Assembly: GCA_011364965.1 (NCBI GenBank)
Contig: RDOB01000003.1
Location: 1 to 64,000, forward strand
DNA length: 64,000 bases
From: Candidatus Heimdallarchaeota archaeon
GTDB lineage: Archaea; Asgardarchaeota; Heimdallarchaeia; Hodarchaeales; Hodarchaeaceae
Direction of reading: 5' to 3'
Position numbers and translations under genes: made by a program. Under the pieces are notes generated by a model. The model saw nothing but the letters and a program-made list of their open reading frames with translations. It made no database searches and had not been told where the DNA came from. Below are positions 48,406-60,787 of the stretch, piece after piece. Position 1 is the stretch's first letter; the number at the start of each line of letters is the position of its first letter.

Positions 48406-50532
48406 ATGAAAAAGAAAAACTTGCTTTTTGCTCTGGTTTTCGTAGCGTTCTTCCTTCCATTATATAGCAGTGCTGTACAATCAGTACCTGCTGCTGTTGA
48501 ACCTCTTATTTCAGTGCATGCAATTGCCCCAACAAATAACCCACAACGAGCAATGTATGCCCAGTTAATGGAACAAGAGCTACCAAAAATCGGAATTGAA
48601 GTAGAATTGGATCTTATCAGCTGGCCTGCACTTCTCACCCGCGCTGCAACTAGTGAGGTTGGTGTTTATTCAGAAGGTGGATATGATATTGCACACTTTG
48701 GAATGTCATTAGGATCACCAGCAGGACATCCAGGTGATTCTATGCTTGGAGTATACCATAGTGGCGCAGTTCCGCCAAATGGATTTAACTGTATGTATTG
48801 GTCAGTAAATCCAGGACACAACAACCTTCGTGCTGCTGAATCAGATGCTTTGATTGAAGCTATCAACAGTGAGTTGAATCAGACCTTATCTCGAGAAATG
48901 CTGTTAGAATGGCAGGAGGTCTACTACGACGTTCTTCCAAACATTATGGTTTATAATCTATTAGAAGTTCATGCTGTTTCAAAAGGTATTAGTGGTTATG
49001 ATCCTGTCAATCCCGCGTTATATTCAATTGAAGACATTCGAATGGATCCTGCTACTTATACTGGTACTATGGGAACAGTAGTGTTAGCTTCCTCTGCTCC
49101 TCCAACTAATTTCCTTCAAATGATCATAAATGATGTATATTCACAATATTGCGCTAATCCAGCAATGGATGCCCTAGTAGGTTTAACTCCTTCTAGAACC
49201 GTTGTTCTACCAACAGGCACAACTTATGAAGATTGGATGATGGCTAATTATGGCGTAGATCTTCCACTCCAAAACTATCCTCGTATTGCCCAAGACCTTG
49301 GATTTTACAGTGAGGATGGTCTTAACTTCACTGTTTCCCTAAGAGATGACGCTTATTGGCACGATGGTGAACAAGTAGACGCTTGGGATGTAGCGTTTAC
49401 CTATCAAGCAGTTCTTACACCTGATGTAGGTTCAGATGAATATAGCAACTTAAGACTTGCCCTTGGAGATGATGATAAAGAAAATCTTCACGGTAATTAT
49501 TCTTTCCAGGTTAAAGATCTTGATGATAATGGCCACTTTGAAACCATTAGCATCATCTTTGATATTACATATGCACCATTCCTTACTGACTACTTCGGTT
49601 ATGCACTTCATCCAGAACATATTCTTGGAGATCCTGTAGATCATGGATTCCTAGTTGATGGCACTTTTGATCCTAATACAAAATGGCAAGTTGCCCCAGC
49701 TGAATGGAGTTCCCACTCATATAATACAGCTGATCCAAGTGATCCTGGTGGTCTAGAAGGACCTATTGGTTGCGGTTCATTAGTTTTCTACGACTTTGAT
49801 CAAACCAGCAGAGTCTTAGAACTTCGCAAATTCGAGAACATTAAATGGGATCACGGTACTGGCACTTGGTTAGAAGGAGAGACAGCTTCTGGAGGTTTGT
49901 CTCACTACCTAGTTGCGGATGGTGAATTAGATGACATGGCAGATGTTGCTAAAGTTATCCCAGCTAGCTTAGATGCAGCCCTAGCTGAAATGAAGGCCGG
50001 AGATGTAAATATACTTGACCATCAATTCAGTATGGGAAATATCTTTGACGAGCTCCAAGCAGAACCAACTATTGTCACTGCTCAAACCCCAGCAACTGGT
50101 TGGCAATGCATTTATCCAAACCCAAAGCAACCTGATCTTGCTAAGAAAGGTGTCCGTCACGCAATTTCTCATGTAGTACCACGTGATGATATTGTAAACT
50201 ATCTTTTTGATGGACTCGCATTCCATGGCTACACACCGGTACCTATCACTGGCTGGGGAGCTATGTCCACAACCGATTGGTTAGCAATGAAGAAAAACAT
50301 TGAAGCATCAAACGGAACAAAACTCCTTACGGGTGAAACTACATTCTATGACTCCTACGATGTTGAACTGGCATTAGACTGGCTCGAGACCGAAGATTAT
50401 GATGTTGGCCCATGGAGAGACGGTGGCGCTGGATTAACAGAACCAGGTGGTGCTATCCCCGGTTATGAATTCAGTGTTGCGCTTCTCGCAATATTGGGAT
50501 CAATTTTCATTATTAAGAAACGAAGAAGATAA
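48406..50532 (+). CDS. Peptide/nickel ABC substrate-binding protein (family 5), circularly permuted, C-terminally anchored
   Basis: SEDGLNFTVSLR...WHDG...DVAFTY, PIGCG and VRHAIS..PRDDIV motifs. The canonical C-lobe motifs are at the N-terminus. Ends IPGYEF + TM + KKRRR. Confidence 0.88.
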   Translation: MKKKNLLFALVFVAFFLPLYSSAVQSVPAAVEPLISVHAIAPTNNPQRAMYAQLMEQELPKIGIEVELDLISWPALLTRAATSEVGVYSEGGYDIAHFGMSLGSPAGHPGDSMLGVYHSGAVPPNGFNCMYWSVNPGHNNLRAAESDALIEAINSELNQTLSREMLLEWQEVYYDVLPNIMVYNLLEVHAVSKGISGYDPVNPALYSIEDIRMDPATYTGTMGTVVLASSAPPTNFLQMIINDVYSQYCANPAMDALVGLTPSRTVVLPTGTTYEDWMMANYGVDLPLQNYPRIAQDLGFYSEDGLNFTVSLRDDAYWHDGEQVDAWDVAFTYQAVLTPDVGSDEYSNLRLALGDDDKENLHGNYSFQVKDLDDNGHFETISIIFDITYAPFLTDYFGYALHPEHILGDPVDHGFLVDGTFDPNTKWQVAPAEWSSHSYNTADPSDPGGLEGPIGCGSLVFYDFDQTSRVLELRKFENIKWDHGTGTWLEGETASGGLSHYLVADGELDDMADVAKVIPASLDAALAEMKAGDVNILDHQFSMGNIFDELQAEPTIVTAQTPATGWQCIYPNPKQPDLAKKGVRHAISHVVPRDDIVNYLFDGLAFHGYTPVPITGWGAMSTTDWLAMKKNIEASNGTKLLTGETTFYDSYDVELALDWLETEDYDVGPWRDGGAGLTEPGGAIPGYEFSVALLAILGSIFIIKKRRR

Positions 50533-50580
50533 AACGGATTAACCCCGTTTCTTTCTTCCTCCCTTTTTTTTATTTTGTTT
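50532..50580 (+). terminator. Hairpin plus pyrimidine/T tract after the binding-protein gene
   Basis: aaacgg-attaacc-ccgttt followed by CT-rich and T8 tracts. Confidence 0.6.
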
Positions 50581-50916
50581 TGATTCTAGAGAAGTATTTT
50601 ATCTCTTCTTTTGAAATATCTTCTTTTTTCATATTGAAGTATTGAAATATCCCTATTGAGGAACTCTAGAATTAGAATATGGTCGAAGATTTTAATGGAT
50701 ATTCATATGAATTCGAAAATCAATATGTTGAGATCAGGACAAATTTAAAGAATGAAAAAGCAGATCAATTTTTCTATATTATTGTACTAAAAGAAAGGTT
50801 CAAAAGGGGTAAGAAATCTATGAACAAAACGTGAAAAGGATATTATGGAAAACCATCTCTTCTATAATTGCCTTTTTCATTAAGATTCTATATATAGAAT
50901 TGGAGGATAATTAAAA

Positions 50917-51795
50917 ATGAATAAAAAGATTCTATTTGGAGTCGGCATTCTGACTCTTATCATTCTTTTACAAAGTATGCCTGCCTCCAGTGCTGTCACA
51001 GTCGAGTCTGTTAAATGGCACCCAGCAGTCAAAGAAGATGCCGTTTATTCTTGGTCGATTGACACAATCAACGCTTCTGGTGAAACCTCATGGGATTGGG
51101 GTTGGGCCAATAATGTCACTCTGAAACAGGGTGAAAAAATTACTCTAGAGTGGACCGCGGACCCCGATGAGGAAACTGCAATAGCAACCCTTGGACCAAT
51201 TATCTACACAGGCATTGTAACAAAAGTTGGATCTCATACTATGAACTTCACCGCTGGTGAGACTACTTTCAATTTCCTTCAGGTACCTGTTTATATTCGA
51301 AATGATCCGACTGGTTTAAATGCTCTTGAAGCAGGTTTAAACTCTCTTGAACGATTATGGATTAATAGCTTTGGTTTACCAACTGGAGCATCATCCGCTG
51401 ATCGTCGCTGGAGCATTGGGATGCATGGCGCAACTCTTCTAAACACAGGGGAAAATGGAACTAAAGGGGAAACCATTATAGGCGAAATTAGCGGTGGTAC
51501 ACCCGCACAACATTATGTGTTCGACATCGAATATGATTCAGTCACTGGATTTGTAACATCATTAAAATACCCCTCAGCAGGTAATCCTGATGATCCAACA
51601 ATTCCAATTGCTAATAGCACATTTGGTATTGTCTCGGGTCTTGATGAACTTGTCATCACATTTGATGGTGAAATGAAAGATGTTTATGCGGAAGCAGAGT
51701 GGGGTAAGGCCAAAGCTGCTCCAGGTTTTGAAGCTCCTATAGCAATTATTACACTAGTTATGTTTGGAGCACTTATTCGAAAACGCAAGAAATAA
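50917..51795 (+). CDS. Secreted surface protein of unknown function with PGF-CTERM-like anchor
   Basis: GGAGG RBS, signal peptide, and C-terminus APGFEAPIAIITLVMFGALIRKRKK. Confidence 0.8.
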   Translation: MNKKILFGVGILTLIILLQSMPASSAVTVESVKWHPAVKEDAVYSWSIDTINASGETSWDWGWANNVTLKQGEKITLEWTADPDEETAIATLGPIIYTGIVTKVGSHTMNFTAGETTFNFLQVPVYIRNDPTGLNALEAGLNSLERLWINSFGLPTGASSADRRWSIGMHGATLLNTGENGTKGETIIGEISGGTPAQHYVFDIEYDSVTGFVTSLKYPSAGNPDDPTIPIANSTFGIVSGLDELVITFDGEMKDVYAEAEWGKAKAAPGFEAPIAIITLVMFGALIRKRKK

Positions 51796-51816
51796 GCATC
51801 TATCTGATTGAATGAA

Positions 51817-51862
51817 AATAAAATCCTTAGAAATTAAGGATTTTATTCCTCTATTTTTTTTT
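51817..51862 (+). terminator. 13-bp perfect hairpin plus T tract
   Basis: aataaaatcctta-gaaat-taaggattttatt, then T9 a few nt downstream. Confidence 0.7.
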
Positions 51863-51882
51863 GGTTTAAGGTATAATATAAA

Positions 51883-52497
51883 ATGTGTTCATTTATGGCT
51901 TCTAATGATAAATCATCATTATTGAAAGTAATTCTTTCTGATCTAGAATGTTTTAGGACACAGGAAAACAATTATGTATGGCACGGTTCAGAGGAACCTT
52001 TTTTTTTGGAGGATGAAAATGTAATTTTCTATACTACTGAAATTTTTGCAATGTATGAAGATAAAAAAATCATTAGCGCTAAATTGATTTGGACCACTGC
52101 TCGTGCGCTATTGTATGGAACTGAAGTGCGGGGGACTATTGTAGCTGATATGGTCTCAAGAGAGTATGAAACAATACGAGGATTGACGAAATCGGATAAA
52201 CTGGAAGCCCCTAGTATTCTAGGATGGTCAATCCCTCATACCATTATTACTAAATTAGAGATTATTAAATTAGGGGAGCGATATTCAATTTACTTCTTTG
52301 AAAATGAAAATAGAAAGTTTGTCGTTAATGATTTACTTTCATCGGAAATGGAAGAAATAAGTAACTTTATGAAAAATAAACCTGTAGAAATAGTTTATGG
52401 TCAATTTAATTTGCCTTGGAGAGATATTTTCCTTTTCTTTTGCGGAGGGATTTTTATTTTTATTATTGGATTAATTCTGATAGCTCTTATATTTTAA
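51883..52497 (+). CDS. Tail-anchored protein with possible PH/GRAM-like domain
   Basis: LEDENV...AKLIWTTARALL...SIPHTIITKLEI pattern, one C-terminal TM and no signal peptide. Confidence 0.5.
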   Translation: MCSFMASNDKSSLLKVILSDLECFRTQENNYVWHGSEEPFFLEDENVIFYTTEIFAMYEDKKIISAKLIWTTARALLYGTEVRGTIVADMVSREYETIRGLTKSDKLEAPSILGWSIPHTIITKLEIIKLGERYSIYFFENENRKFVVNDLLSSEMEEISNFMKNKPVEIVYGQFNLPWRDIFLFFCGGIFIFIIGLILIALIF

Positions 52498-52500
52498 GAT

Positions 52501-52851
52501 TTAAAACAATACTGTTAGGAATGAGAACAGAATTAGAAAAGCTCCAGCTACAATATCTTCTCCTGCCTTTCCAAAACCATAAAAATAATCTCTTTGAGGA
52601 GAACTCAAGTATTCGTTTATATCCTGTCCCCGAACCTTTCGAATAACAATCGATTCTAGAAAATCTCTGAGCCCTCCCACCACGAGAAACAACCCCCCAA
52701 TTAAGAATAATACTAATCCTAGTTCGCTAAACGAGAATTCTTTTTGATTCAACAGGATATTAATTACCAAAATAAAAAAAGACGCGAGTATCCCAAATCC
52801 TACTTTTTTAGCAATCTCAAATCGAGGATCACGTTTGAAAATAACTTCCAA
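52501..52851 (-). CDS. Small 3-TM hypothetical membrane protein
   Basis: Three hydrophobic segments. TTG start after GGTG. Confidence 0.65.
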   Translation of the reverse strand: MEVIFKRDPRFEIAKKVGFGILASFFILVINILLNQKEFSFSELGLVLFLIGGLFLVVGGLRDFLESIVIRKVRGQDINEYLSSPQRDYFYGFGKAGEDIVAGAFLILFSFLTVLF

Positions 52852-52898
52852 AATAGAACACCAAGTGACCTTTGTAATTGTAAAAAAATACGTCGGGA

Positions 52899-53240
52899 TT
52901 ATTTCGGGTGTTTTAATCCAGCCATAGATGATTTCAGCTTTTCTGTGGAATATCTTTCAAATTTGGTTTCATCTTGAATGGGTCTTGATATAAGATTTAA
53001 TTTGTATTCAGCGACTCTCATATTCTTTAAATTGATATGCTTTTGGATAATGCCTTCCTCTAAAAGAGTTCTCAGAGAGTATCGAATAGTTCGAGTGGAG
53101 TATCCTGTGAGATCCTTTAACTCATTAGTTGTGATAGTTTGGCCTTGTTTAAAAGCTTTAAGGATTGCAATAGTTGCAGGAGGCATAGATTTGAGTTTGG
53201 ATTGTTTTACTTCAATTGGAAATTCAGATGCAAACTTCAT
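52899..53240 (-). CDS. Winged-HTH transcriptional regulator
   Basis: MPPATIAIL...ITTNELKDLTGYSTRTIRYSLRTLLEEGII...N..NMR...Y. Confidence 0.85.
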   Translation of the reverse strand: MKFASEFPIEVKQSKLKSMPPATIAILKAFKQGQTITTNELKDLTGYSTRTIRYSLRTLLEEGIIQKHINLKNMRVAEYKLNLISRPIQDETKFERYSTEKLKSSMAGLKHPK

Positions 53241-53393
53241 TTTCTATTGATCTTCCTAATTCTTTTTGACTTATCTGTATATTAAAAGTCTTTCCAAGAA
53301 TGTAAGAAACTAATAATGTGATTGCACGTATATGCCACAAACTAGATTTTCTTCTTGAATACTCTGGGATAGAGGAAATTTCTTTGTGCAAAA

Positions 53394-53858
53394 CTAGGTT
53401 AATTCATATCTTTGCTCTAAAAAGGGATTTTCATCTGTTCCTGCATAATGATATAGAATGATCAAAGACAATAAATACAGTGAAGAAACTACTCCTAAAC
53501 CAAAAAAGGATCCTATAATTAGAAAGGTTCCAATAATAGTAGTTATCCAAATGAAAATGATCACAATATTCTTCCTCATTTGAATTCGAATCCATGCTTT
53601 TTCTGGTTCTGTTAAAGTATCAGGGAAGAATTTTGCCAACATTAATGAAGCAGTATTATAAAGGAGAAATATTGAACCAATTAGAACTTCCACAATAATT
53701 GTGGCTATAATAAGAGTCATATATATCCCCTCTCTAAAATTAAAAAAGAATCCACTTATAAATAAAAAAATCACTCCGATTAAACCGTAGAAACTCAGAG
53801 GATATTGAGACTTAAATTGTGTTATTGACAGTTTTTTTCCAGAGATCAAAGATATCAC
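53394..53858 (-). CDS. 4-TM hypothetical membrane protein
   Basis: Four hydrophobic segments. Confidence 0.6.
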   Translation of the reverse strand: MISLISGKKLSITQFKSQYPLSFYGLIGVIFLFISGFFFNFREGIYMTLIIATIIVEVLIGSIFLLYNTASLMLAKFFPDTLTEPEKAWIRIQMRKNIVIIFIWITTIIGTFLIIGSFFGLGVVSSLYLLSLIILYHYAGTDENPFLEQRYELT

Positions 53859-53890
53859 CTACATGAGGATTCATGAGGAACTAATAAAAT

Positions 53891-54424
53891 TTATGCAATG
53901 ATGGAATATAATAATCCCCCAATAATTGAGGCCATTCCCAATAATACACTAATATATCCCAGCATAGGAATAATTTGATATCCAAGAAAGTTTAAGGTCT
54001 GTAGGGTAATAAAATCGGAATAACGATCACCTAATCCAGGTAGAAATATTGGATTTCCAATCACGGAAAGAATGAAGAAAACTAAAAACACATTCCCATA
54101 TTCTAATAATCGTATATCTCTGATTTTGGTATTTTTGGTCTTTAATACCCGAATGATAATAATCCCTGAGAAAATAATTGAAAGCAATAAAAACGCTAAA
54201 GCTTCTATTCTCATTTGCAAAGGTCCAGCATCAATAACTATTGAACCATAGGGACGGTAAAGCCTATACCAAGGCAAAAAAATTGCTAAACTGAATATAA
54301 GTATCTGAAAACCGTTCCTAAGAAGACTGATTCTCCAGTTGAGTTTATCATAATCTGTACCGGTGATTGAGGGTATGTTCGTCCTTTCTGAAAGCCAATC
54401 CCAAAAAGAATTTTTATTTTCCAT
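53891..54424 (-). CDS. 4-TM hypothetical membrane protein (tetraspan topology)
   Basis: TM1 ends FLPWY and TM4 reads LGYISVLLGMASIIGGLL. Confidence 0.65.
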   Translation of the reverse strand: MENKNSFWDWLSERTNIPSITGTDYDKLNWRISLLRNGFQILIFSLAIFLPWYRLYRPYGSIVIDAGPLQMRIEALAFLLLSIIFSGIIIIRVLKTKNTKIRDIRLLEYGNVFLVFFILSVIGNPIFLPGLGDRYSDFITLQTLNFLGYQIIPMLGYISVLLGMASIIGGLLYSIIA

Positions 54425-54583
54425 TAATATTCCACTGAATTAAAGGATTTGAGGATTTATTATGAATATTCATATTCGATAAACTGAATTATCTCACTAA
54501 TTCCTGAACCAAATGTCTCATTTATATGTTTATATAAGGGCAAAAAAAATATCCACACCAGAAAGAACAATTTCTCAAGTCTG

Positions 54584-55321
54584 TTATAACGTAACATTCA
54601 AAATTGTGAAGTAAAGATTAAATGAAAGATGTAGAAAAATTGCAGGAATTATTGATCGTGATCTCAAGGTAATGAAGGTATTAAATAAACCTAATAGAAA
54701 AACTAGAACATATAATACAAAATTTCCTACAAGAAAATACTTTAAGTGATAAATTGGGCCAAACCATAATGAAACAAACAATAAACTTTGAAGTTGAGCC
54801 TCCTTATAAGAGGATGGATTCCTTTTTAATAAAAAGAATAGAATTTGAACTAGGAAGATTGACCGAAATTCAAGTTCTTCGATTAAACCTAAAAATAGAG
54901 GGAAAAAAAGACGTTCAGGCCAAGCATCAACAGGAAATAGAATTACTGTATTGATTTTATCAATGGAATATAAAAGAATAGCGAATAAAATAACAATGCT
55001 CCCAATAATCATAACTAGGATATAATACGGAGCAATTTTATTTAAAATGAAATATTGTTTGAAATAAGATCGATTACACCAAAAGAAAAGCATGACAGGA
55101 ACTGCCCCGATCAATAATCCAAGCTCTGTACCTGCTTTATCTGCAAGCATATGTTCTTCTTGAGGATATAATAAGAAGAACACTTGACGAGTGATCCAAT
55201 AATATACTTTAAAAGTTCTTAATATGATTAAGATAAGGATAATTTTTATTTTCAGAGGCCAAGAGTCAAAAAGCGGAGGAATTTCCGATTCATATTGAGC
55301 CAGCAAAAAATGTAACTCCAA
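54584..55321 (-). CDS. CPBP (type II CAAX/Abi) intramembrane metalloprotease
   Basis: EELEFR, FGPIYH and SIIPAIFLHLSFN motifs. Confidence 0.88.
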   Translation of the reverse strand: MELHFLLAQYESEIPPLFDSWPLKIKIILILIILRTFKVYYWITRQVFFLLYPQEEHMLADKAGTELGLLIGAVPVMLFFWCNRSYFKQYFILNKIAPYYILVMIIGSIVILFAILLYSIDKINTVILFPVDAWPERLFFPLFLGLIEELEFRSIFLVQILFFLLKRNPSSYKEAQLQSLLFVSLWFGPIYHLKYFLVGNFVLYVLVFLLGLFNTFITLRSRSIIPAIFLHLSFNLYFTILNVTL

Positions 55322-55357
55322 AAGAGATTTTTATTTAAAATTGAAAAAAGAGGAGAA

Positions 55358-56938
55358 TTAAGAAGCTTCTCCTCTACTAGAATAAATTTCCTTCGAGAAC
55401 CAACACGCTACTTGATGTCCTGGAAAAACTTCGTCAAGAGTAGGTTCCTGATTGCATTTGTCCTTTGCATAATTGCAGCGATCTTTAAATCGACAACCAG
55501 GTTGAGGATTAATTGGCGTGGGGACATCTCCTCGTAAAATGATTCTTTCTTTCCTCGTTTTGGGATCAGGGATTGGGACAGCAGACATTAGGGCTTCAGT
55601 ATAGGGATGTAGAGGGCGAAGAAATAGTTCATCAGTGTCAGCTATTTCCATCATCTTTCCTACATACATCACTGCAACACGATCTGAAACATGACGGATG
55701 ACACTTAAATCGTGAGCTACTACGATATATGTTAAACCTAAGGTATTTTGAAGATCATCTAAAAGATTTAATATCTGTGCACGAATCGAGACATCCAAAG
55801 CTGACACAGGCTCATCTGCAACAATTATTTGTGGATTCACGGACAGAGCACGAGCAATCCCAATTCTCTGGCGTTGACCTCCGGAAAATTCATGAGGATA
55901 TCGATAAATATGGAATGGGGCCAAACCAACGAGATCCATAAGCTCAAGTACTTTCTGTTCTTTTTCCTTTTGATTATAAGCTAGACCATACAGATCTAGT
56001 CCTTCACTAATGATGTCATATACGGTCATTCGGGGATTTAATGAGGAATATGGATCTTGAAATATTAATTGAATATATTTTCTAAATGCACGCATTTTTT
56101 TGTCTAATGGTTCGTTTTTGTCAATTCTTTGCCAAACCACTCCTCCAATGATTAGTATAGCTGATCCAAGTAAGGTAATTATTAGCGTTGGTATATCAGG
56201 AAAGTACGGACGTCCACCAATGATTATAACCAAGAACATTAAAACCCATTCGCTTAGAACCCCGAAGACGGCAATAATAACCCCAGTTTTAGTGGTTGGA
56301 AAATCTGGTGGTCTTTTGTTCAATAAATGATATAACGGGGAAGCTAAAAACATACCTGTTCCTATGAAAGTTGTTATAGTGAAAGTAAATATCCAGATAA
56401 ATAGTAATGCTACGATGAAGGAAAGATTAGGCCAATTTCGCGTTAAACTAGCAAAGCTAATTAGCTCTAATTCCGAAGTAGCATCATTGAATATGTAAGC
56501 ACCAGAGATAATAACGGAGCCCTCATCAACGAGGGAGTTTAAGAAGGTTCCATTAATACCTGGAATGAATCTTGCAGGAATGAGAAAAGTAAGAAATAAA
56601 AAAGCGAGTCCAGTTAAAATCATAAGAATACTATAAACAAAATTTGTCCGAACAAATTCCTTACCCATTCGGGTGACATCACGATCGTTGATAATGACAC
56701 TTCCGGACGTAGGTTCTAGTAGATGAAGAAGCATTCGTCCGGTCGTAGTTTTCCCACAACCACTTTCACCCACGAGTCCAAATGTTTCTCCTTTGAATAC
56801 ATCAAATGTAATATCATCAACGGCATGAACATTTCCAACAACTGATTGTCTAATTATTCCCTCTCTAATTGGGAAAAGTTTCACAAGGTTCTTAACACTA
56901 ATGATAGGGGTTTTTGTTAAATTTGCCATTTTTTTCAC
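55358..56938 (-). CDS. OppF/DppF-type ABC ATPase with a 4-TM insertion
   Basis: [49 protein letters not shown] and a C-terminal Cys cluster. A hydrophobic insert occupies ~aa 92-278. Confidence 0.92.
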   Translation of the reverse strand: MKKMANLTKTPIISVKNLVKLFPIREGIIRQSVVGNVHAVDDITFDVFKGETFGLVGESGCGKTTTGRMLLHLLEPTSGSVIINDRDVTRMGKEFVRTNFVYSILMILTGLAFLFLTFLIPARFIPGINGTFLNSLVDEGSVIISGAYIFNDATSELELISFASLTRNWPNLSFIVALLFIWIFTFTITTFIGTGMFLASPLYHLLNKRPPDFPTTKTGVIIAVFGVLSEWVLMFLVIIIGGRPYFPDIPTLIITLLGSAILIIGGVVWQRIDKNEPLDKKMRAFRKYIQLIFQDPYSSLNPRMTVYDIISEGLDLYGLAYNQKEKEQKVLELMDLVGLAPFHIYRYPHEFSGGQRQRIGIARALSVNPQIIVADEPVSALDVSIRAQILNLLDDLQNTLGLTYIVVAHDLSVIRHVSDRVAVMYVGKMMEIADTDELFLRPLHPYTEALMSAVPIPDPKTRKERIILRGDVPTPINPQPGCRFKDRCNYAKDKCNQEPTLDEVFPGHQVACWFSKEIYSSRGEAS

Positions 56939-56942
56939 CTTT

Positions 56943-57929
56943 TTACAATGTTGCTGCGTAGTGACAAAATGAAAAATGTGAAGGTTCGATTTCTACATAA
57001 GGAGGTACTTGAGTAGAGCACTTCTCTGTCGCATAAGGACATCGTGGATGAAAACGACATCCACTTGGTGGAGTTATAAGGTTGGGTACAGTACCTCTGA
57101 TGACTCCAAGTCGCGAAATTTTCTTATCCATACGTGGAATAGAACTAAGCAACGCTCTGGTGTAAGGATGGTCAGGTTTGTCATAGATAGTATTAACATC
57201 TGTATATTCAACTATATTACCTGCATACATCACTGCTACATTATCAGCAATCTCTGCTATGACGCCAAGGTTATGTGTAATATAAAGAACAGCCATATTT
57301 AAATCTTCTTGAAGATCTTTAATTAAATCCAATACTTGTGCTTGAATAGTGACATCAAGAGCTGTTGTAGGTTCATCTGCTATAAGCATCTGTGGATTAC
57401 AAGACAATGCCATTGCAATCATCACCCTTTGTCTCATTCCACCAGAAAATAGATGTGGATAGTCATTAATTCTACGTCTAGCTTCAGGGATACCGACCAT
57501 TTGCATTAATTCTATCCCTTTTTCTAGAGCTTCATCTTCTGAGACATCTTGATGGAGTTTGATATTCTCAAGAATTTGATTTTTTACTGTAAAAACTGGA
57601 TTTAATGAAGTCATTGGATCTTGGAAGATCATTGAAATCTCATTTCCTCTAATTTGCCTCATTCTTTCTTCTGAAAGTTCCAGCAAATCCTCTCCATTAA
57701 ACATCACCTTACCTCCAACAATTTTCCCTGGTGGAGTAGGTACTAGTTTTAAAATCGACAAGGAAGTGATAGTTTTTCCGCATCCACTTTCCCCCACCAA
57801 GCCCAAGACTTCTCCACGATGTAGCTTGAAACTAACATCATCAACTGCCTTTACCACACCATCCTCGGTGAAGAATTGCGTTTTTAAATGTTCTAACTCT
57901 AATAATGGTTCTTCTGCAAATGTCATCAA
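56943..57929 (-). CDS. oppD: OppD/DppD-type ABC ATPase
   Basis: [38 protein letters not shown] and GCRFHPRC motifs. Confidence 0.93.
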
Positions 57930-57942
57930 TGTTTATCTCCTA

Positions 57943-59646
57943 TTAATTCTTCAGTCGTGGGTCTAACGCGTCTCTTAGCGCATCACCCATTAGATTAAAT
58001 CCTAATACAACAACAAATATGGCTAACCCAGGGATGGTCGCAACCCATGGAGCAAATCGTAAGGTGTTACCCGTCATCCCCCATTGAATTGCTGTACCCC
58101 ATGAAACCGCGAGAGGATCTCCAAAACCTAAGAATGATAATCCTGCTTCAATTAGGATGACTGTGGCAGTTCCTAGAGTCGTTTGAACGATTACTGGAGC
58201 AAGAGCATTGGGTAAGAGATGTTTGAACATAATTGTTACATTTGAAACTCCTAATGCTCTCGCAGCTTCAGTATATTCTAATTCTCGCAATGAAAGAAAC
58301 TGTGCTCGGACAACTCGCGCTATCCCTGCCCAACCCAGCACACCTATAATTATCGCCATGAAATATAGACTTATTTGTTCCCATAATGTAATAGCAATCA
58401 ATAATAAGAAGAAAAATGGAATGGCTAAGATAATATCTGTTAATCTCATAAGCACATTATCCCAAAATCCTCCATAATATCCCGCTATTGTACCAACGAT
58501 TATTCCAATCAATGTAGTAATTCCTTGAGCTAAAAATGCAACGGTTAGGGAGGAAGTAGCGCCCCAAATGGTTGCTGCAAGAATGTCGCGCCCTAAAGCA
58601 TCAGTCCCAAACACATGAAATTTGTTAGTGACATAAAAAACCGCTACATATGCCATCCAACCTTCATAAGTTGCAGTATCTTGATCATTCCACCCATCTA
58701 ATGCATTCCAATTCTGATTCGTGGTTCTAAGAGGATCCATCTCTGCAGGTCCAGACCGTGTAACAACATATTGATTAATTCCAGGGAATTCTATATCCAT
58801 AATTTCCGTATCCAAGACAACAGTGTAAGTTGATCCGGTTGTGATTTGGAGTCCTGCTACACTAAACCTAAAATCAATTAACCTTAGGCTAATACTGGGC
58901 CCAGTAGAGACCAAATAGCTTTGAACACTTGAAGATGCAAGATAATTTGCTGAATTCAAATCTGATTCTGCTTCATATAGATAAACCTTAAATTTGCCTC
59001 CCCATACTGATTCTGGAGAATCCACACGAACTGCTAAGAAAATAGATACGAAAGTTAACTTATTTTTAGAAGGATTTATTTGAAAGGCAATTTTTCCTCC
59101 AGTACGATAATCAATAAGAGCACTGCCATTAAATGAAGTTGGTAACCTGAGAGAACCATTTGCATTCAAATAGTCAGCTGGATCCAAAGAACTACTCCAT
59201 AATTCTTCTTCAGTAGTTTCATCAACAATACTATCAATTTTACTAAGTTGTAAATAGTGAGGAAGGGCTGTTGTTGACATACCATTTATGAAATTAAGTT
59301 TATAATTAGCATAAAAAGCAGCAACGGTTTTTTCTAAAGTACTTGCTTCTTGACTTGCAGCTGTATCTTTAGCAGATTCATAGGAAAATGGAGGTGTGAA
59401 TCGAGCTTGTACATTGGATTCTCTTGGCCCAAATGGAACCAATCTCCCCGGTCCTGCGAGGAAAGGGGCAAAAACTCCTACAAAAGTAACAAAGATTATG
59501 ATAAAAAGCCCGAAAACTCCCATTCTATGCCGACGGAATCTTCGCCAAAAAATCATAATTCGTCCTGCACGTCTTCTTTTCTCCTTTTCTTTTTCAAAGG
59601 CCTCTAATCTCTCATCGTCAATAACGATTTTTCCTTCTTTACTCAT
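57943..59646 (-). CDS. OppC/DppC-type permease with a large extracellular insertion
   Basis: WRRFRRH N-terminus, GTDALGRD, EAARALG, HLLPN, EAGLSFLG and GDALRDALDP motifs. Confidence 0.92.
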   Translation of the reverse strand: MSKEGKIVIDDERLEAFEKEKEKRRRAGRIMIFWRRFRRHRMGVFGLFIIIFVTFVGVFAPFLAGPGRLVPFGPRESNVQARFTPPFSYESAKDTAASQEASTLEKTVAAFYANYKLNFINGMSTTALPHYLQLSKIDSIVDETTEEELWSSSLDPADYLNANGSLRLPTSFNGSALIDYRTGGKIAFQINPSKNKLTFVSIFLAVRVDSPESVWGGKFKVYLYEAESDLNSANYLASSSVQSYLVSTGPSISLRLIDFRFSVAGLQITTGSTYTVVLDTEIMDIEFPGINQYVVTRSGPAEMDPLRTTNQNWNALDGWNDQDTATYEGWMAYVAVFYVTNKFHVFGTDALGRDILAATIWGATSSLTVAFLAQGITTLIGIIVGTIAGYYGGFWDNVLMRLTDIILAIPFFFLLLIAITLWEQISLYFMAIIIGVLGWAGIARVVRAQFLSLRELEYTEAARALGVSNVTIMFKHLLPNALAPVIVQTTLGTATVILIEAGLSFLGFGDPLAVSWGTAIQWGMTGNTLRFAPWVATIPGLAIFVVVLGFNLMGDALRDALDPRLKN

Positions 59647-59665
59647 AAGCTAAACCTCTGTTTCA

Positions 59666-60787
59666 CTAATAACGAATTCTAGGATCCAAAAATGCGTATG
59701 TTATATCAGTAACAAGATTTGAGACAATAACCATGATAGCGATTAACATATTTACTCCCATCATAAAATTATAATCTCTCAAATTAATACGTGCTACTGC
59801 TTCTCGTCCCAATCCAGGCCAAGAGAATACTGTTTCTGTCAAAGCTGCTCCAGCCAGCAAAAAACCGATTGAAAGTCCAACAACTGTAACAACAGGCAAT
59901 AAAGCATTCCTCAATGCGTGTTTATATATAACTAACCTTTCAGGAAGCCCTTTTGATCTTGCAGTCAGAATATAATCTTGTCTTAAAACTTCGAGCATGC
60001 TTGAACGTGTGAGGCGTAATACCAGAGCAGTTCCAGCTAATCCAAGGACTATTGTTGGCAAGATCATATGTGCTAGTTCATCAACTAGAAGTTCTATTGC
60101 TCCTTCATTCCCTGTCAAGGTATAACTTGTGGAACCAAGAGCTGGAAAGCGAATCCCGAAAAATATCTTATAATCAGAGAAAAGTAGAATGAACATAATT
60201 CCTGTCCAAAAAACAGGCATCGAAACACCAAATAAAGCCAAAGTTGTCCCTAAATTGTCTAATCTTGAGTAAGGTTTTCTTGCGGAAAATATTCCCAAAG
60301 GAATGCCAATCATTAGACTCATTAGCAACGATGCTAATTGTAATTTTATTGTTTCCCACGCAAGCGCTCCAATTATTGAATTAATGCTTGATCCTGTAAA
60401 GGATCGTCCCATATTCCCAAAAATGAACCCTGGTTCAAAATTAGAATCAGGAACTCCAAAATCAAGGACTCCTGTATCTTGAATAAACCTAAAAGGAATA
60501 AAAATAACAAAATTCGCAAATTCCTCAAAGAAATTCCCCCAATCCCCTACTTCGGAATTACGTCCTAAGAGCCAAAGGATATACTGTTCCATTGGTTCAC
60601 GATCTAAACCTAGATTATGTCTGATATTTGCAGCCTCTTCTGGAGACATAGTCGGATTTGTAAGCCTGAGGACGTCCACGTAGTCCGCTGGCGCGTTAAT
60701 CATTAAGGCAAATAGGATAATGGAAATTCCTAAGAATAATGGTATACTAAACAATAATCGTCTAATGACGTAATTTCTCAAACTCAT
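59666..60787 (-). CDS. OppB/DppB-type permease
   Basis: YVIRRLL, SMPVFW, RSSMLEVL.QDYI.TARSKGL, HALRNA, ETVFSWPGLG and LDPRIRY motifs. Confidence 0.95.
   Translation of the reverse strand: MSLRNYVIRRLLFSIPLFLGISIILFALMINAPADYVDVLRLTNPTMSPEEAANIRHNLGLDREPMEQYILWLLGRNSEVGDWGNFFEEFANFVIFIPFRFIQDTGVLDFGVPDSNFEPGFIFGNMGRSFTGSSINSIIGALAWETIKLQLASLLMSLMIGIPLGIFSARKPYSRLDNLGTTLALFGVSMPVFWTGIMFILLFSDYKIFFGIRFPALGSTSYTLTGNEGAIELLVDELAHMILPTIVLGLAGTALVLRLTRSSMLEVLRQDYILTARSKGLPERLVIYKHALRNALLPVVTVVGLSIGFLLAGAALTETVFSWPGLGREAVARINLRDYNFMMGVNMLIAIMVIVSNLVTDITYAFLDPRIRY

Follow-up and report, generated by a model that had tools for sequence, protein, structure and literature searches.

Are the unusual parts of an ATP-binding cassette (ABC) importer acquired together, as one redesign, or one after another? 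The question is raised by a gene cluster for an Opp/Dpp-type importer of a Candidatus Heimdallarchaeota archaeon (order Hodarchaeales), at positions 48406 to 60787 of the 64,000-nucleotide stretch that we analyzed (contig RDOB01000003.1 of assembly GCA_011364965.1; hereafter the window). An initial annotation, made from the sequence, described a coordinately remodelled importer with non-canonical architecture in three of its five subunits: a circularly permuted, C-anchored binding protein, a permease (OppC) with a large extracellular insert, and an ATPase (OppF) with a membrane insert. Our results make it probable that this is a working Opp/Dpp-type importer, encoded in one conserved Hodarchaeales cluster, whose unusual parts were added in layers and not as one package. 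A first layer, common to all orthologous clusters of the genus, would consist of the permuted, C-anchored binding protein and the outer domain of OppC. In a later layer, restricted to one sub-lineage, oppF would have gained an in-frame four-helix module of ~200 aa, and genes for a CPBP protease and a 177-aa tetraspan protein would have appeared directly downstream.

Gene identities were assigned with Pfam profiles. Genome comparisons covered 400 Asgard genomes, including 22 of the window's genus, and some profile searches were run on 83 Heimdallarchaeia genomes. The window's genome is labelled G000; G057, G059, G066, G071 and G073 are others of its genus.

Subunits of the importer

The cluster comprises 12 genes, three on the plus strand converging with a minus-strand set in the order oppB-oppC-oppD-oppF-CPBP-p177-p154-p113-p116. 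We delimited it at 48406 and 60787 because the flanking genes are unrelated housekeeping genes (a CDP-alcohol phosphatidyltransferase, a methyltransferase, a Cys-tRNA synthetase and a DinB-family protein).

The permease OppB (373 aa; 59666..60787, minus strand) matches PF00528 and PF19300 (BPD_transp_1_N), and OppC (567 aa; 57943..59646, minus) matches PF00528 and PF12911 (OppC_N), with OppC_N at residues 33-86 and BPD_transp_1 at residues 381-566. The ATPases OppD (328 aa; 56943..57929, minus) and OppF (526 aa; 55358..56938, minus) both carry the oligo_HPY C-terminal domain, both retain Walker A, Q-loop, signature, Walker B and H-switch, and both end in four C-terminal cysteines matching those of E. 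coli DppD/DppF. Judged by these matches and by the linked PF00496 binding protein, the system classifies as a type I ABC importer of the PepT (Opp/Dpp) family. Since every ATPase and permease motif is intact, transport itself would be canonical; the substrate may be a peptide or an oligosaccharide. The initial annotation considered OppD and OppB near canonical, which holds for OppD by Pfam; in OppB, the first outer loop is longer by about 50 residues.

Like E. coli DppABCDF and OppABCDF and M. tuberculosis OppABCD (PepT, TC 3.A.1.5), the system has five components, OppB-type and OppC-type permeases, oligo_HPY ATPases with four cysteines and a family-5 binding protein. Unlike those systems, it has a rotated, C-anchored binding protein, a 255-aa outer domain in OppC and four helices inside the OppF ATPase. 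In E. coli, DppC pairs specifically with DppF, and the four-cysteine tail is an iron-sulphur site (PMC12136057); by homology, the remodelled OppC and OppF would lie in the same half of the translocator.

Circular permutation of the binding protein

The binding protein (708 aa; 48406..50532, plus) is of family 5 (OppA/DppA type), although Pfam SBP_bac_5 matches only residues 291-633, to profile positions 3-267 of 368. When a profile of 35 family members was aligned with proteins of the Protein Data Bank, B. subtilis AppA 60-165 fell on profile positions 288-411 and AppA 276-319 on positions 579-622, and AppA 360-519, the end of AppA, fell on positions 37-218. Thermus 2d5w (402-563) and E. coli YliB (344-492) aligned as AppA does, with positions 34-202. 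In the protein itself, residues 30-218 (48493..49059, plus) thus correspond to the C-terminal third of canonical family-5 proteins (AppA 360-519), now placed first, and residues 222-675 (49069..50430, plus) to their N-terminal two-thirds (AppA 21-352), now placed second. The AlphaFold model (pLDDT 88.6, pTM 0.82) gave the same picture: residues 222-675 superposed on AppA 21-352 with Z 22.1 over 330 aligned residues, and more than 40 other solved family-5 proteins scored Z 19-21. Its chain is circularly permuted: the family-5 fold is kept, and the canonical order of its segments is lost. Read against these alignments, the sequence places the cut behind the 'YD..ALDWL' helix of the second lobe, in the loop that follows it, and joins the old termini at about residues 203-222. 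The chain begins with a predicted signal peptide (residues 1-24; 48406..48477, plus), recognized by reading the sequence, by a hydropathy peak at residues 6-24 and by a low-confidence N-terminal helix in the model.

We found about 78 full-length relatives (clusters at 90% identity), of which the named ones are labelled Hodarchaeales/Hodarchaeota, Heimdall-, Hermod- or Promethearchaeota; the closest named relatives come from Candidatus Hodarchaeum mangrovi (83%) and from metagenome-assembled genomes (MAGs) of Hodarchaeales, which bears out the Asgard assignment. Among the 400 Asgard genomes, matches spanning the junction came only from the window's genus, where 13 of the 22 genomes have them and a single genome may have as many as 6 paralogues; other genera yielded matches to a lobe alone, like canonical proteins. 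A distant paralogue at 25% identity is likewise collinear over the junction. On a 14-kb contig of another genome (G062:C75; locus L022, 5829-10196), two permuted binding-protein genes (727 and 719 aa) stand in tandem, with no Opp permease on the contig. A limited literature search found no published description of a permuted family-5 binding protein. The nearest parallel is TpMglB-2 (Tp0684) of Treponema pallidum, a natural circular permutant among Cluster B sugar-binding proteins, whose topology its authors linked to tethering (PMC4990184). Both are naturally permuted, membrane-tethered ABC binding proteins that keep the bilobed fold; TpMglB-2, however, has an N-terminal lipid anchor, and the protein described here belongs to Cluster C/family 5 and has another cut point; the two do not represent a homologous event.

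Initially, the binding protein had been paired with the permease set from family and proximity only, the genes being convergent and ~5 kb apart. Genome comparison supports the partnership well. The cluster is conserved in at least five genomes of the genus. G000, G073, G071 and G066 share the gene order binding protein-p292-p204 / p116-p113-p154-OppF-D-C-B; in G059 (contig C314), oppB directly follows the binding-protein gene, both being on one strand. Identity to the window's binding protein is 58% in G073 and 47-48% in G071, G066 and G059. The other three Opp-type permease sets of the window's genome each have their own adjoining canonical binding protein, and the only other permuted binding protein of that genome (contig C1) has no Opp permease nearby. 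Together with the synteny, this provision of the other sets points to the permuted protein as the partner of OppBCDF.

An outer domain in OppC

As the initial annotation had it, OppC contains an extracellular insert of ~255 aa. The beta-rich residues occupy the loop between the first two transmembrane helices (residues 88-345; 58612..59385, minus), between OppC_N and a permease core that starts at about residue 345, and they could be aligned in 8 orthologues at 29-71% identity. Queried with the window's insert, the 400 Asgard genomes gave matches in 7 of the 22 members of the genus and in no other genome; a set of 5.8 billion proteins contained only 4 clusters. Long OppCs as such are common in the class: open frames of at least 490 aa accounted for 26 of the 150 listed OppC_N matches in the 83 Heimdallarchaeia genomes. 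When the moderately confident core of a model of the insert was compared with known structures, the resulting list was dominated by jelly-roll carbohydrate-binding modules (CBMs), with a best Z of 8.2, which is the noise level of the tool; the likeness is a lead only. Kinship with the secreted protein p292 of the same cluster was rejected (hhalign probability 0.4%). In the assembled transporter, the domain would add outer surface beside the place where the binding protein docks.

A four-helix membrane module in OppF

The Pfam ABC_tran match of OppF is split by an insert (residues 92-290; 56069..56665, minus). Compared with insert-less orthologues, ~200 aa have been added cleanly and in frame between '...GK' and 'KKMRAFRKYIQLIFQDP', where the canonical sequence reads ...IKK/KDMPSFRKSIQ... 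across the insertion point. The insert lies after Walker A and before the Q-loop, and leaves all catalytic motifs and the four-cysteine tail unharmed. Hydropathy peaks at residues 104-122, 174-192, 221-239 and 251-269 correspond to the four transmembrane segments first annotated; an N-in/C-in topology is predicted from the acidic first outer loop of ~50 aa and from the basic residues that face the cytoplasm. The cytoplasmic loop YHLLNKRPPDFPTTK is near-invariant among orthologues whose inserts are only 38% identical, and 61 positions are invariant in 3 orthologues. We estimated dN/dS at ~0.12 for the insert and ~0.06 for the ATPase core, both approximate because dS is near saturation; the insert evolves 2-3 times faster than the core.

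Among the 38 ABC-like open reading frames of the window's genome, only that of OppF has hydrophobic segments in the interval from Walker A to the signature. An artefact or frameshift was discarded as an explanation, the insert being in frame in 3 genomes and in 3 metagenome protein clusters, free of stop codons and under purifying selection. The public gene call for OppF is a 331-aa product that starts inside the insert and lacks the Walker A half of the protein and half of the insert, so the annotation hides the insert. In a limited literature search we found no published description of an OppF with a membrane insert. Much longer ATPases are represented by the Mycoplasma OppD and OppF models NF043079 (561 positions) and NF043078 (649 positions). 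Residues 88-320 of the window's OppD match positions 298-530 of the 561-position model and, from these match coordinates, the ~200 additional Mycoplasma positions would seem to occupy the corresponding loop, ahead of the Q-loop strand; an HMM search of 1.84 billion representative proteins revealed no sequence relation between the Mycoplasma inserts and the four-helix module.

The changes are nested

Across orthologous clusters, the permuted binding protein and the OppC insert always occur together, and all 7 genomes with the OppC insert have permuted binding proteins. The OppF insert is present in only 3 of these 7 genomes (3 of the 22 of the genus), namely G000, G057 and G073; these loci, and only these, also have the CPBP and p177 genes. 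The orthologous clusters of G071, G066 and G059 encode a canonical OppF of 328-329 aa and lack both CPBP and p177. The five OppFs that have the insert fall on one side of a weakly supported branch (73/83) when a tree is drawn from the ATPase core, which is consistent with a single later gain of the insert. As far as sequence comparison goes, then, the remodelling consists of nested, separable innovations and is not an obligatory package. The coordination that was initially proposed is borne out only in part: the permuted binding protein and the OppC insert go together in all orthologous clusters, and the OppF insert, CPBP and p177 belong to a sub-lineage only; independent occurrence, named at the outset as evidence against coordination, was seen in part, in the restricted OppF insert, in permuted paralogues in other settings, and in copies of the module on other permeases (described below).

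These other settings are varied. In G057 (contig C8), a permuted paralogue stands beside a canonical 314-aa OppC. Permuted paralogues are also the last gene of FtsX/MacB-type ABC operons in G074, G072, G075 and G067, with the order FtsX/MacB-type permease (~960 aa), ABC ATPases of 345 and 253 aa, a 647-aa protein and the binding protein (L021 = G074:C27, 2951-11732; also L023-L025); the Opp cluster of G059 (L020) itself contains these FtsX-type genes. The link between a family-5 binding protein and a type VII (mechanotransmission) ABC system is unusual. A third type of Opp cluster, at L150 (G074:C39, 7620-13940) and L151 (G075:C315), has an OppB of 695-749 aa with an extra N-terminal part of ~350-400 aa, an OppC of ~490 aa and a divergently transcribed, distant permuted binding protein of 616-642 aa, whose collinearity was checked for G074 only; a p116-like gene is found there in G074 only.

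The module on other importers

The OppF insert is rare: it was found in 3 of the 400 Asgard genomes and in 3 clusters of a word-indexed protein set, and the HMM search of the 1.84 billion representatives gave only two credible matches. One (P0088, E 2.5e-25) is a more divergent inserted OppF. The other (P0089, E 2e-8), named 'carbohydrate ABC transporter permease', is 482 aa long and carries the module N-terminally (residues 20-192; hhalign probability 97.3%, E 2e-11). In the 83 Heimdallarchaeia genomes, a profile of the module alone matched within the window's genus only. Its hosts there include, in G076, a 487-aa MalG-type permease, fused N-terminally, within a MalF-MalG-MalK operon whose neighbours are a C-anchored binding protein and, by eye, a TrmB-like regulator and an amylase-like enzyme; another host is a 609-aa LivM-type permease of G064, again an N-terminal fusion (hhalign 94%, E 1e-7). 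Free-standing copies of 183-216 aa exist as well, together with a 292-aa copy bearing a C-terminal double zinc ribbon; around the free-standing and zinc-ribbon loci (L057, 1414-2292, plus; L062, 1465-2067, plus; L060, 1483-2034, minus), the neighbours within short stretches are not ABC genes. By profile comparison, the module is portable and has been joined repeatedly to subunits of three classes of binding-protein-dependent importers.

Several searches for its source or kin were negative. Pfam at E up to 1 gave no credible match for the module, nor for the OppC insert, p292, p204, p154 or p177, and ESM Atlas gave no usable match for the OppC and OppF inserts. Copying from the downstream tetraspans p177 and p154 was rejected, as there is no similarity (E > 1). 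None of 80 metagenome loci found with P0088 contained the module, in a search that was swamped by generic OppD/F genes.

Another membrane insert was found in a different Heimdallarchaeial family, in which OppF-like ATPases of 401-410 aa contain a conserved hydrophobic hairpin of ~43 aa (…TTWF.LAF…PPFNKRP…) set into the loop that joins strands one and two, along with an N-terminal extension of ~30 aa (L054, 6535-7767, minus; L152-L155). These occur in 5 genomes of 3 genera, in operons with a near-canonical OppC. Homology between hairpin and module was rejected (hhalign probability 0.9%). Hydrophobic inserts in importer ATPases thus look recurrent.

The C-terminal anchor

About 16 residues after the end of its fold, the binding protein carries an anchor composed of PGYEF, a hydrophobic helix and KKRRR (50452..50529, plus), in line with the C-anchoring first reported. 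It matches Heimdall-CTERM (NF045529, a 26-residue motif with a cut-off of 24 bits) at a borderline level: 25.4 bits in a six-frame genome search and 20.9 bits when hmmscan was run on the full-length protein. Twelve proteins of the window's genome exceed the cut-off. No EpsH-type sortase was found in this genome, which is 87% complete. A limited literature search on Heimdall-CTERM and on Hodarchaeales peptide ABC transporters returned nothing that describes the transporter features seen here.

The idea that anchoring at the C-terminus requires the permutation is weakened, because a canonical, unpermuted family-5 protein of the same genome (542 aa; contig C14, 184067-185449, minus) continues from its normal C-terminus straight into Heimdall-CTERM (27.2 bits), through a linker that is just as short.

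What the added parts may do

In the layered scenario, the module would be an accessory membrane subunit of binding-protein-dependent importers that was captured by fusion. It would have entered a surface loop of the ATPase that lies under OppC, by homology with DppC-DppF, and its helices would be expected next to OppC in the membrane. Since it is attached to three importer classes with different substrates, a generic role is probable. As a guess, we favour a role in organising the anchored binding protein, or holding it, at the translocator, the alternative being stabilisation of the translocator. Taken as a general statement, that the module is an unrecognised accessory subunit of Hodarchaeales importers, whether free, permease-fused or ATPase-spliced, which recruits or positions a Heimdall-CTERM-anchored binding protein at the translocator, this proposal is a tentative one of rather low probability.

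A number of observations weigh against these interpretations. Importers without the module likewise use Heimdall-CTERM-anchored binding proteins, as the C14 cluster illustrates. The linker between the ATPase core and the first helix of the insert is only ~8 residues on the N-side, so the geometry proposed for helices beside OppC is tentative. The ATPase tree is poorly resolved, and one gain plus one loss of the OppF insert may fit it too. All occurrences come from MAGs of one genus, so that co-occurrence counts are not independent events. Finally, the OppC insert modelled alone is of poor quality (pLDDT 46).

The closest competitor, which we nevertheless regard as unlikely, is that the subunits are co-adapted and form an importer subtype of their own: the outer domain of OppC and the membrane module of OppF would have evolved for docking of the rearranged, C-anchored binding protein. 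The constant company of permuted binding protein and OppC insert in orthologous clusters speaks for such a subtype, the third cluster type again pairs a divergent permuted binding protein with enlarged permeases (OppC ~490 aa, OppB 700-750 aa), and OppC and OppF are expected in the same half of the translocator. However, 4 of the 7 genomes that share this OppC insert and this binding protein do without the OppF insert, and the module also sits on sugar-type and Liv-type permeases. The permuted protein, in turn, is found beside a canonical 314-aa OppC and in FtsX-type operons, the unpermuted C14 protein has the same anchor on an equally short linker, and OppC frames of at least 490 aa are frequent in the Heimdallarchaeia.

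We give still less credence to the inserts being optional and largely neutral decorations, the module a mere anchor or a promiscuous small membrane protein and the OppC domain a variable surface loop. Neutrality would account for a narrow, patchy distribution and for the 2-3 times faster evolution of the insert, and the unrelated OppF hairpin, at another site and in a different family, suggests that such inserts are easily tolerated. It would not account for purifying selection at dN/dS ~0.12, nor for a cytoplasmic loop motif strictly conserved across 38% identity; a mere anchor would be pointless on MalG- and LivM-type permeases, which are themselves integral membrane proteins, and two more membrane-protein genes appeared along with the insert.

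Other genes of the cluster

The initial annotation placed a CPBP protease and tetraspan genes after oppF on the same strand, and Pfam and hydropathy agree. The CPBP/Rce1-like intramembrane protease (245 aa; 54584..55321, minus), restricted to loci with the OppF insert, matches PF02517 with 36.3 bits against a cut-off of 22.4 and contains the motifs EELEFR and HLSFN, the middle FxxxH motif being inexact. CPBP is physically coupled to an ABC transporter elsewhere, in the fusion of an ABC permease subunit and a CPBP protease modelled by NF041647; the window's CPBP is a separate gene that matches this model weakly (E 0.001, 17.9 bits against a cut-off of 435) and is not a member. Next come p177 (177 aa; 53891..54424, minus), a tetraspan by hydropathy with the same restricted distribution as CPBP, and p154 (53394..53858, minus), a tetraspan membrane protein present in all orthologous clusters. 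They are followed by p113 (52899..53240, minus), a winged helix-turn-helix protein (Pfam HTH_DeoR/HTH_24) kept in all orthologous clusters and likely a regulator of the cluster, and p116 (52501..52851, minus), a small membrane protein with three helices, also kept in the cluster.

On the plus strand, the binding-protein gene is followed by p292 (50917..51795), a secreted surface protein with Heimdall-CTERM (27.3 bits in the genome search, 22.6 bits in hmmscan), and by p204 (51883..52497), a tail-anchored protein by hydropathy that is kept in the cluster. p292 is syntenic in the G073, G071 and G066 clusters, and is present but rearranged in that of G059. A p292-like domain forms the C-terminal part of permuted binding proteins of ~1000 aa (L026, 7825-10782, minus; L029, 333-3341, minus), a fusion which suggests that p292 works with the binding protein.

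Given the CPBP protease, the small membrane proteins, the winged-helix protein and the surface protein p292, and given the link of permuted binding proteins to FtsX/MacB-type mechanotransmission systems, the cluster could be thought mainly a sensing or surface-processing device, in which CPBP and the tetraspans act on surface proteins and the ABC unit gives energy or a signal, but this is highly improbable, as an intact, complete OppBCDF with a binding protein is the standard make-up of an importer, and CPBP and p177 are missing from most orthologous clusters.

Implications

The ATPases of ABC importers are described in textbooks as soluble subunits, and to our knowledge a membrane-embedded ATPase is absent from all solved ABC importers. 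Nor do we know of any solved structure in which an OppA/DppA-type binding protein departs from a fixed chain order. Both rules, a soluble ATPase and a fixed chain order, are broken here within a single system that is conserved and under selection, and that belongs to the archaeal order nearest to the eukaryotes. The occurrence of the same module inside an ATPase, on two other kinds of permease and alone indicates a route by which such inserts may arise, the capture of a small membrane protein, and makes the module a concrete candidate for a new accessory subunit. One genus holds a natural series with and without the OppF insert and with and without the OppC insert, so that the role of each piece is testable. 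If the module is indeed an accessory subunit, then, taken together with the independent OppF hairpin, membrane-embedded ATPases would be routine in Asgard peptide-type importers.

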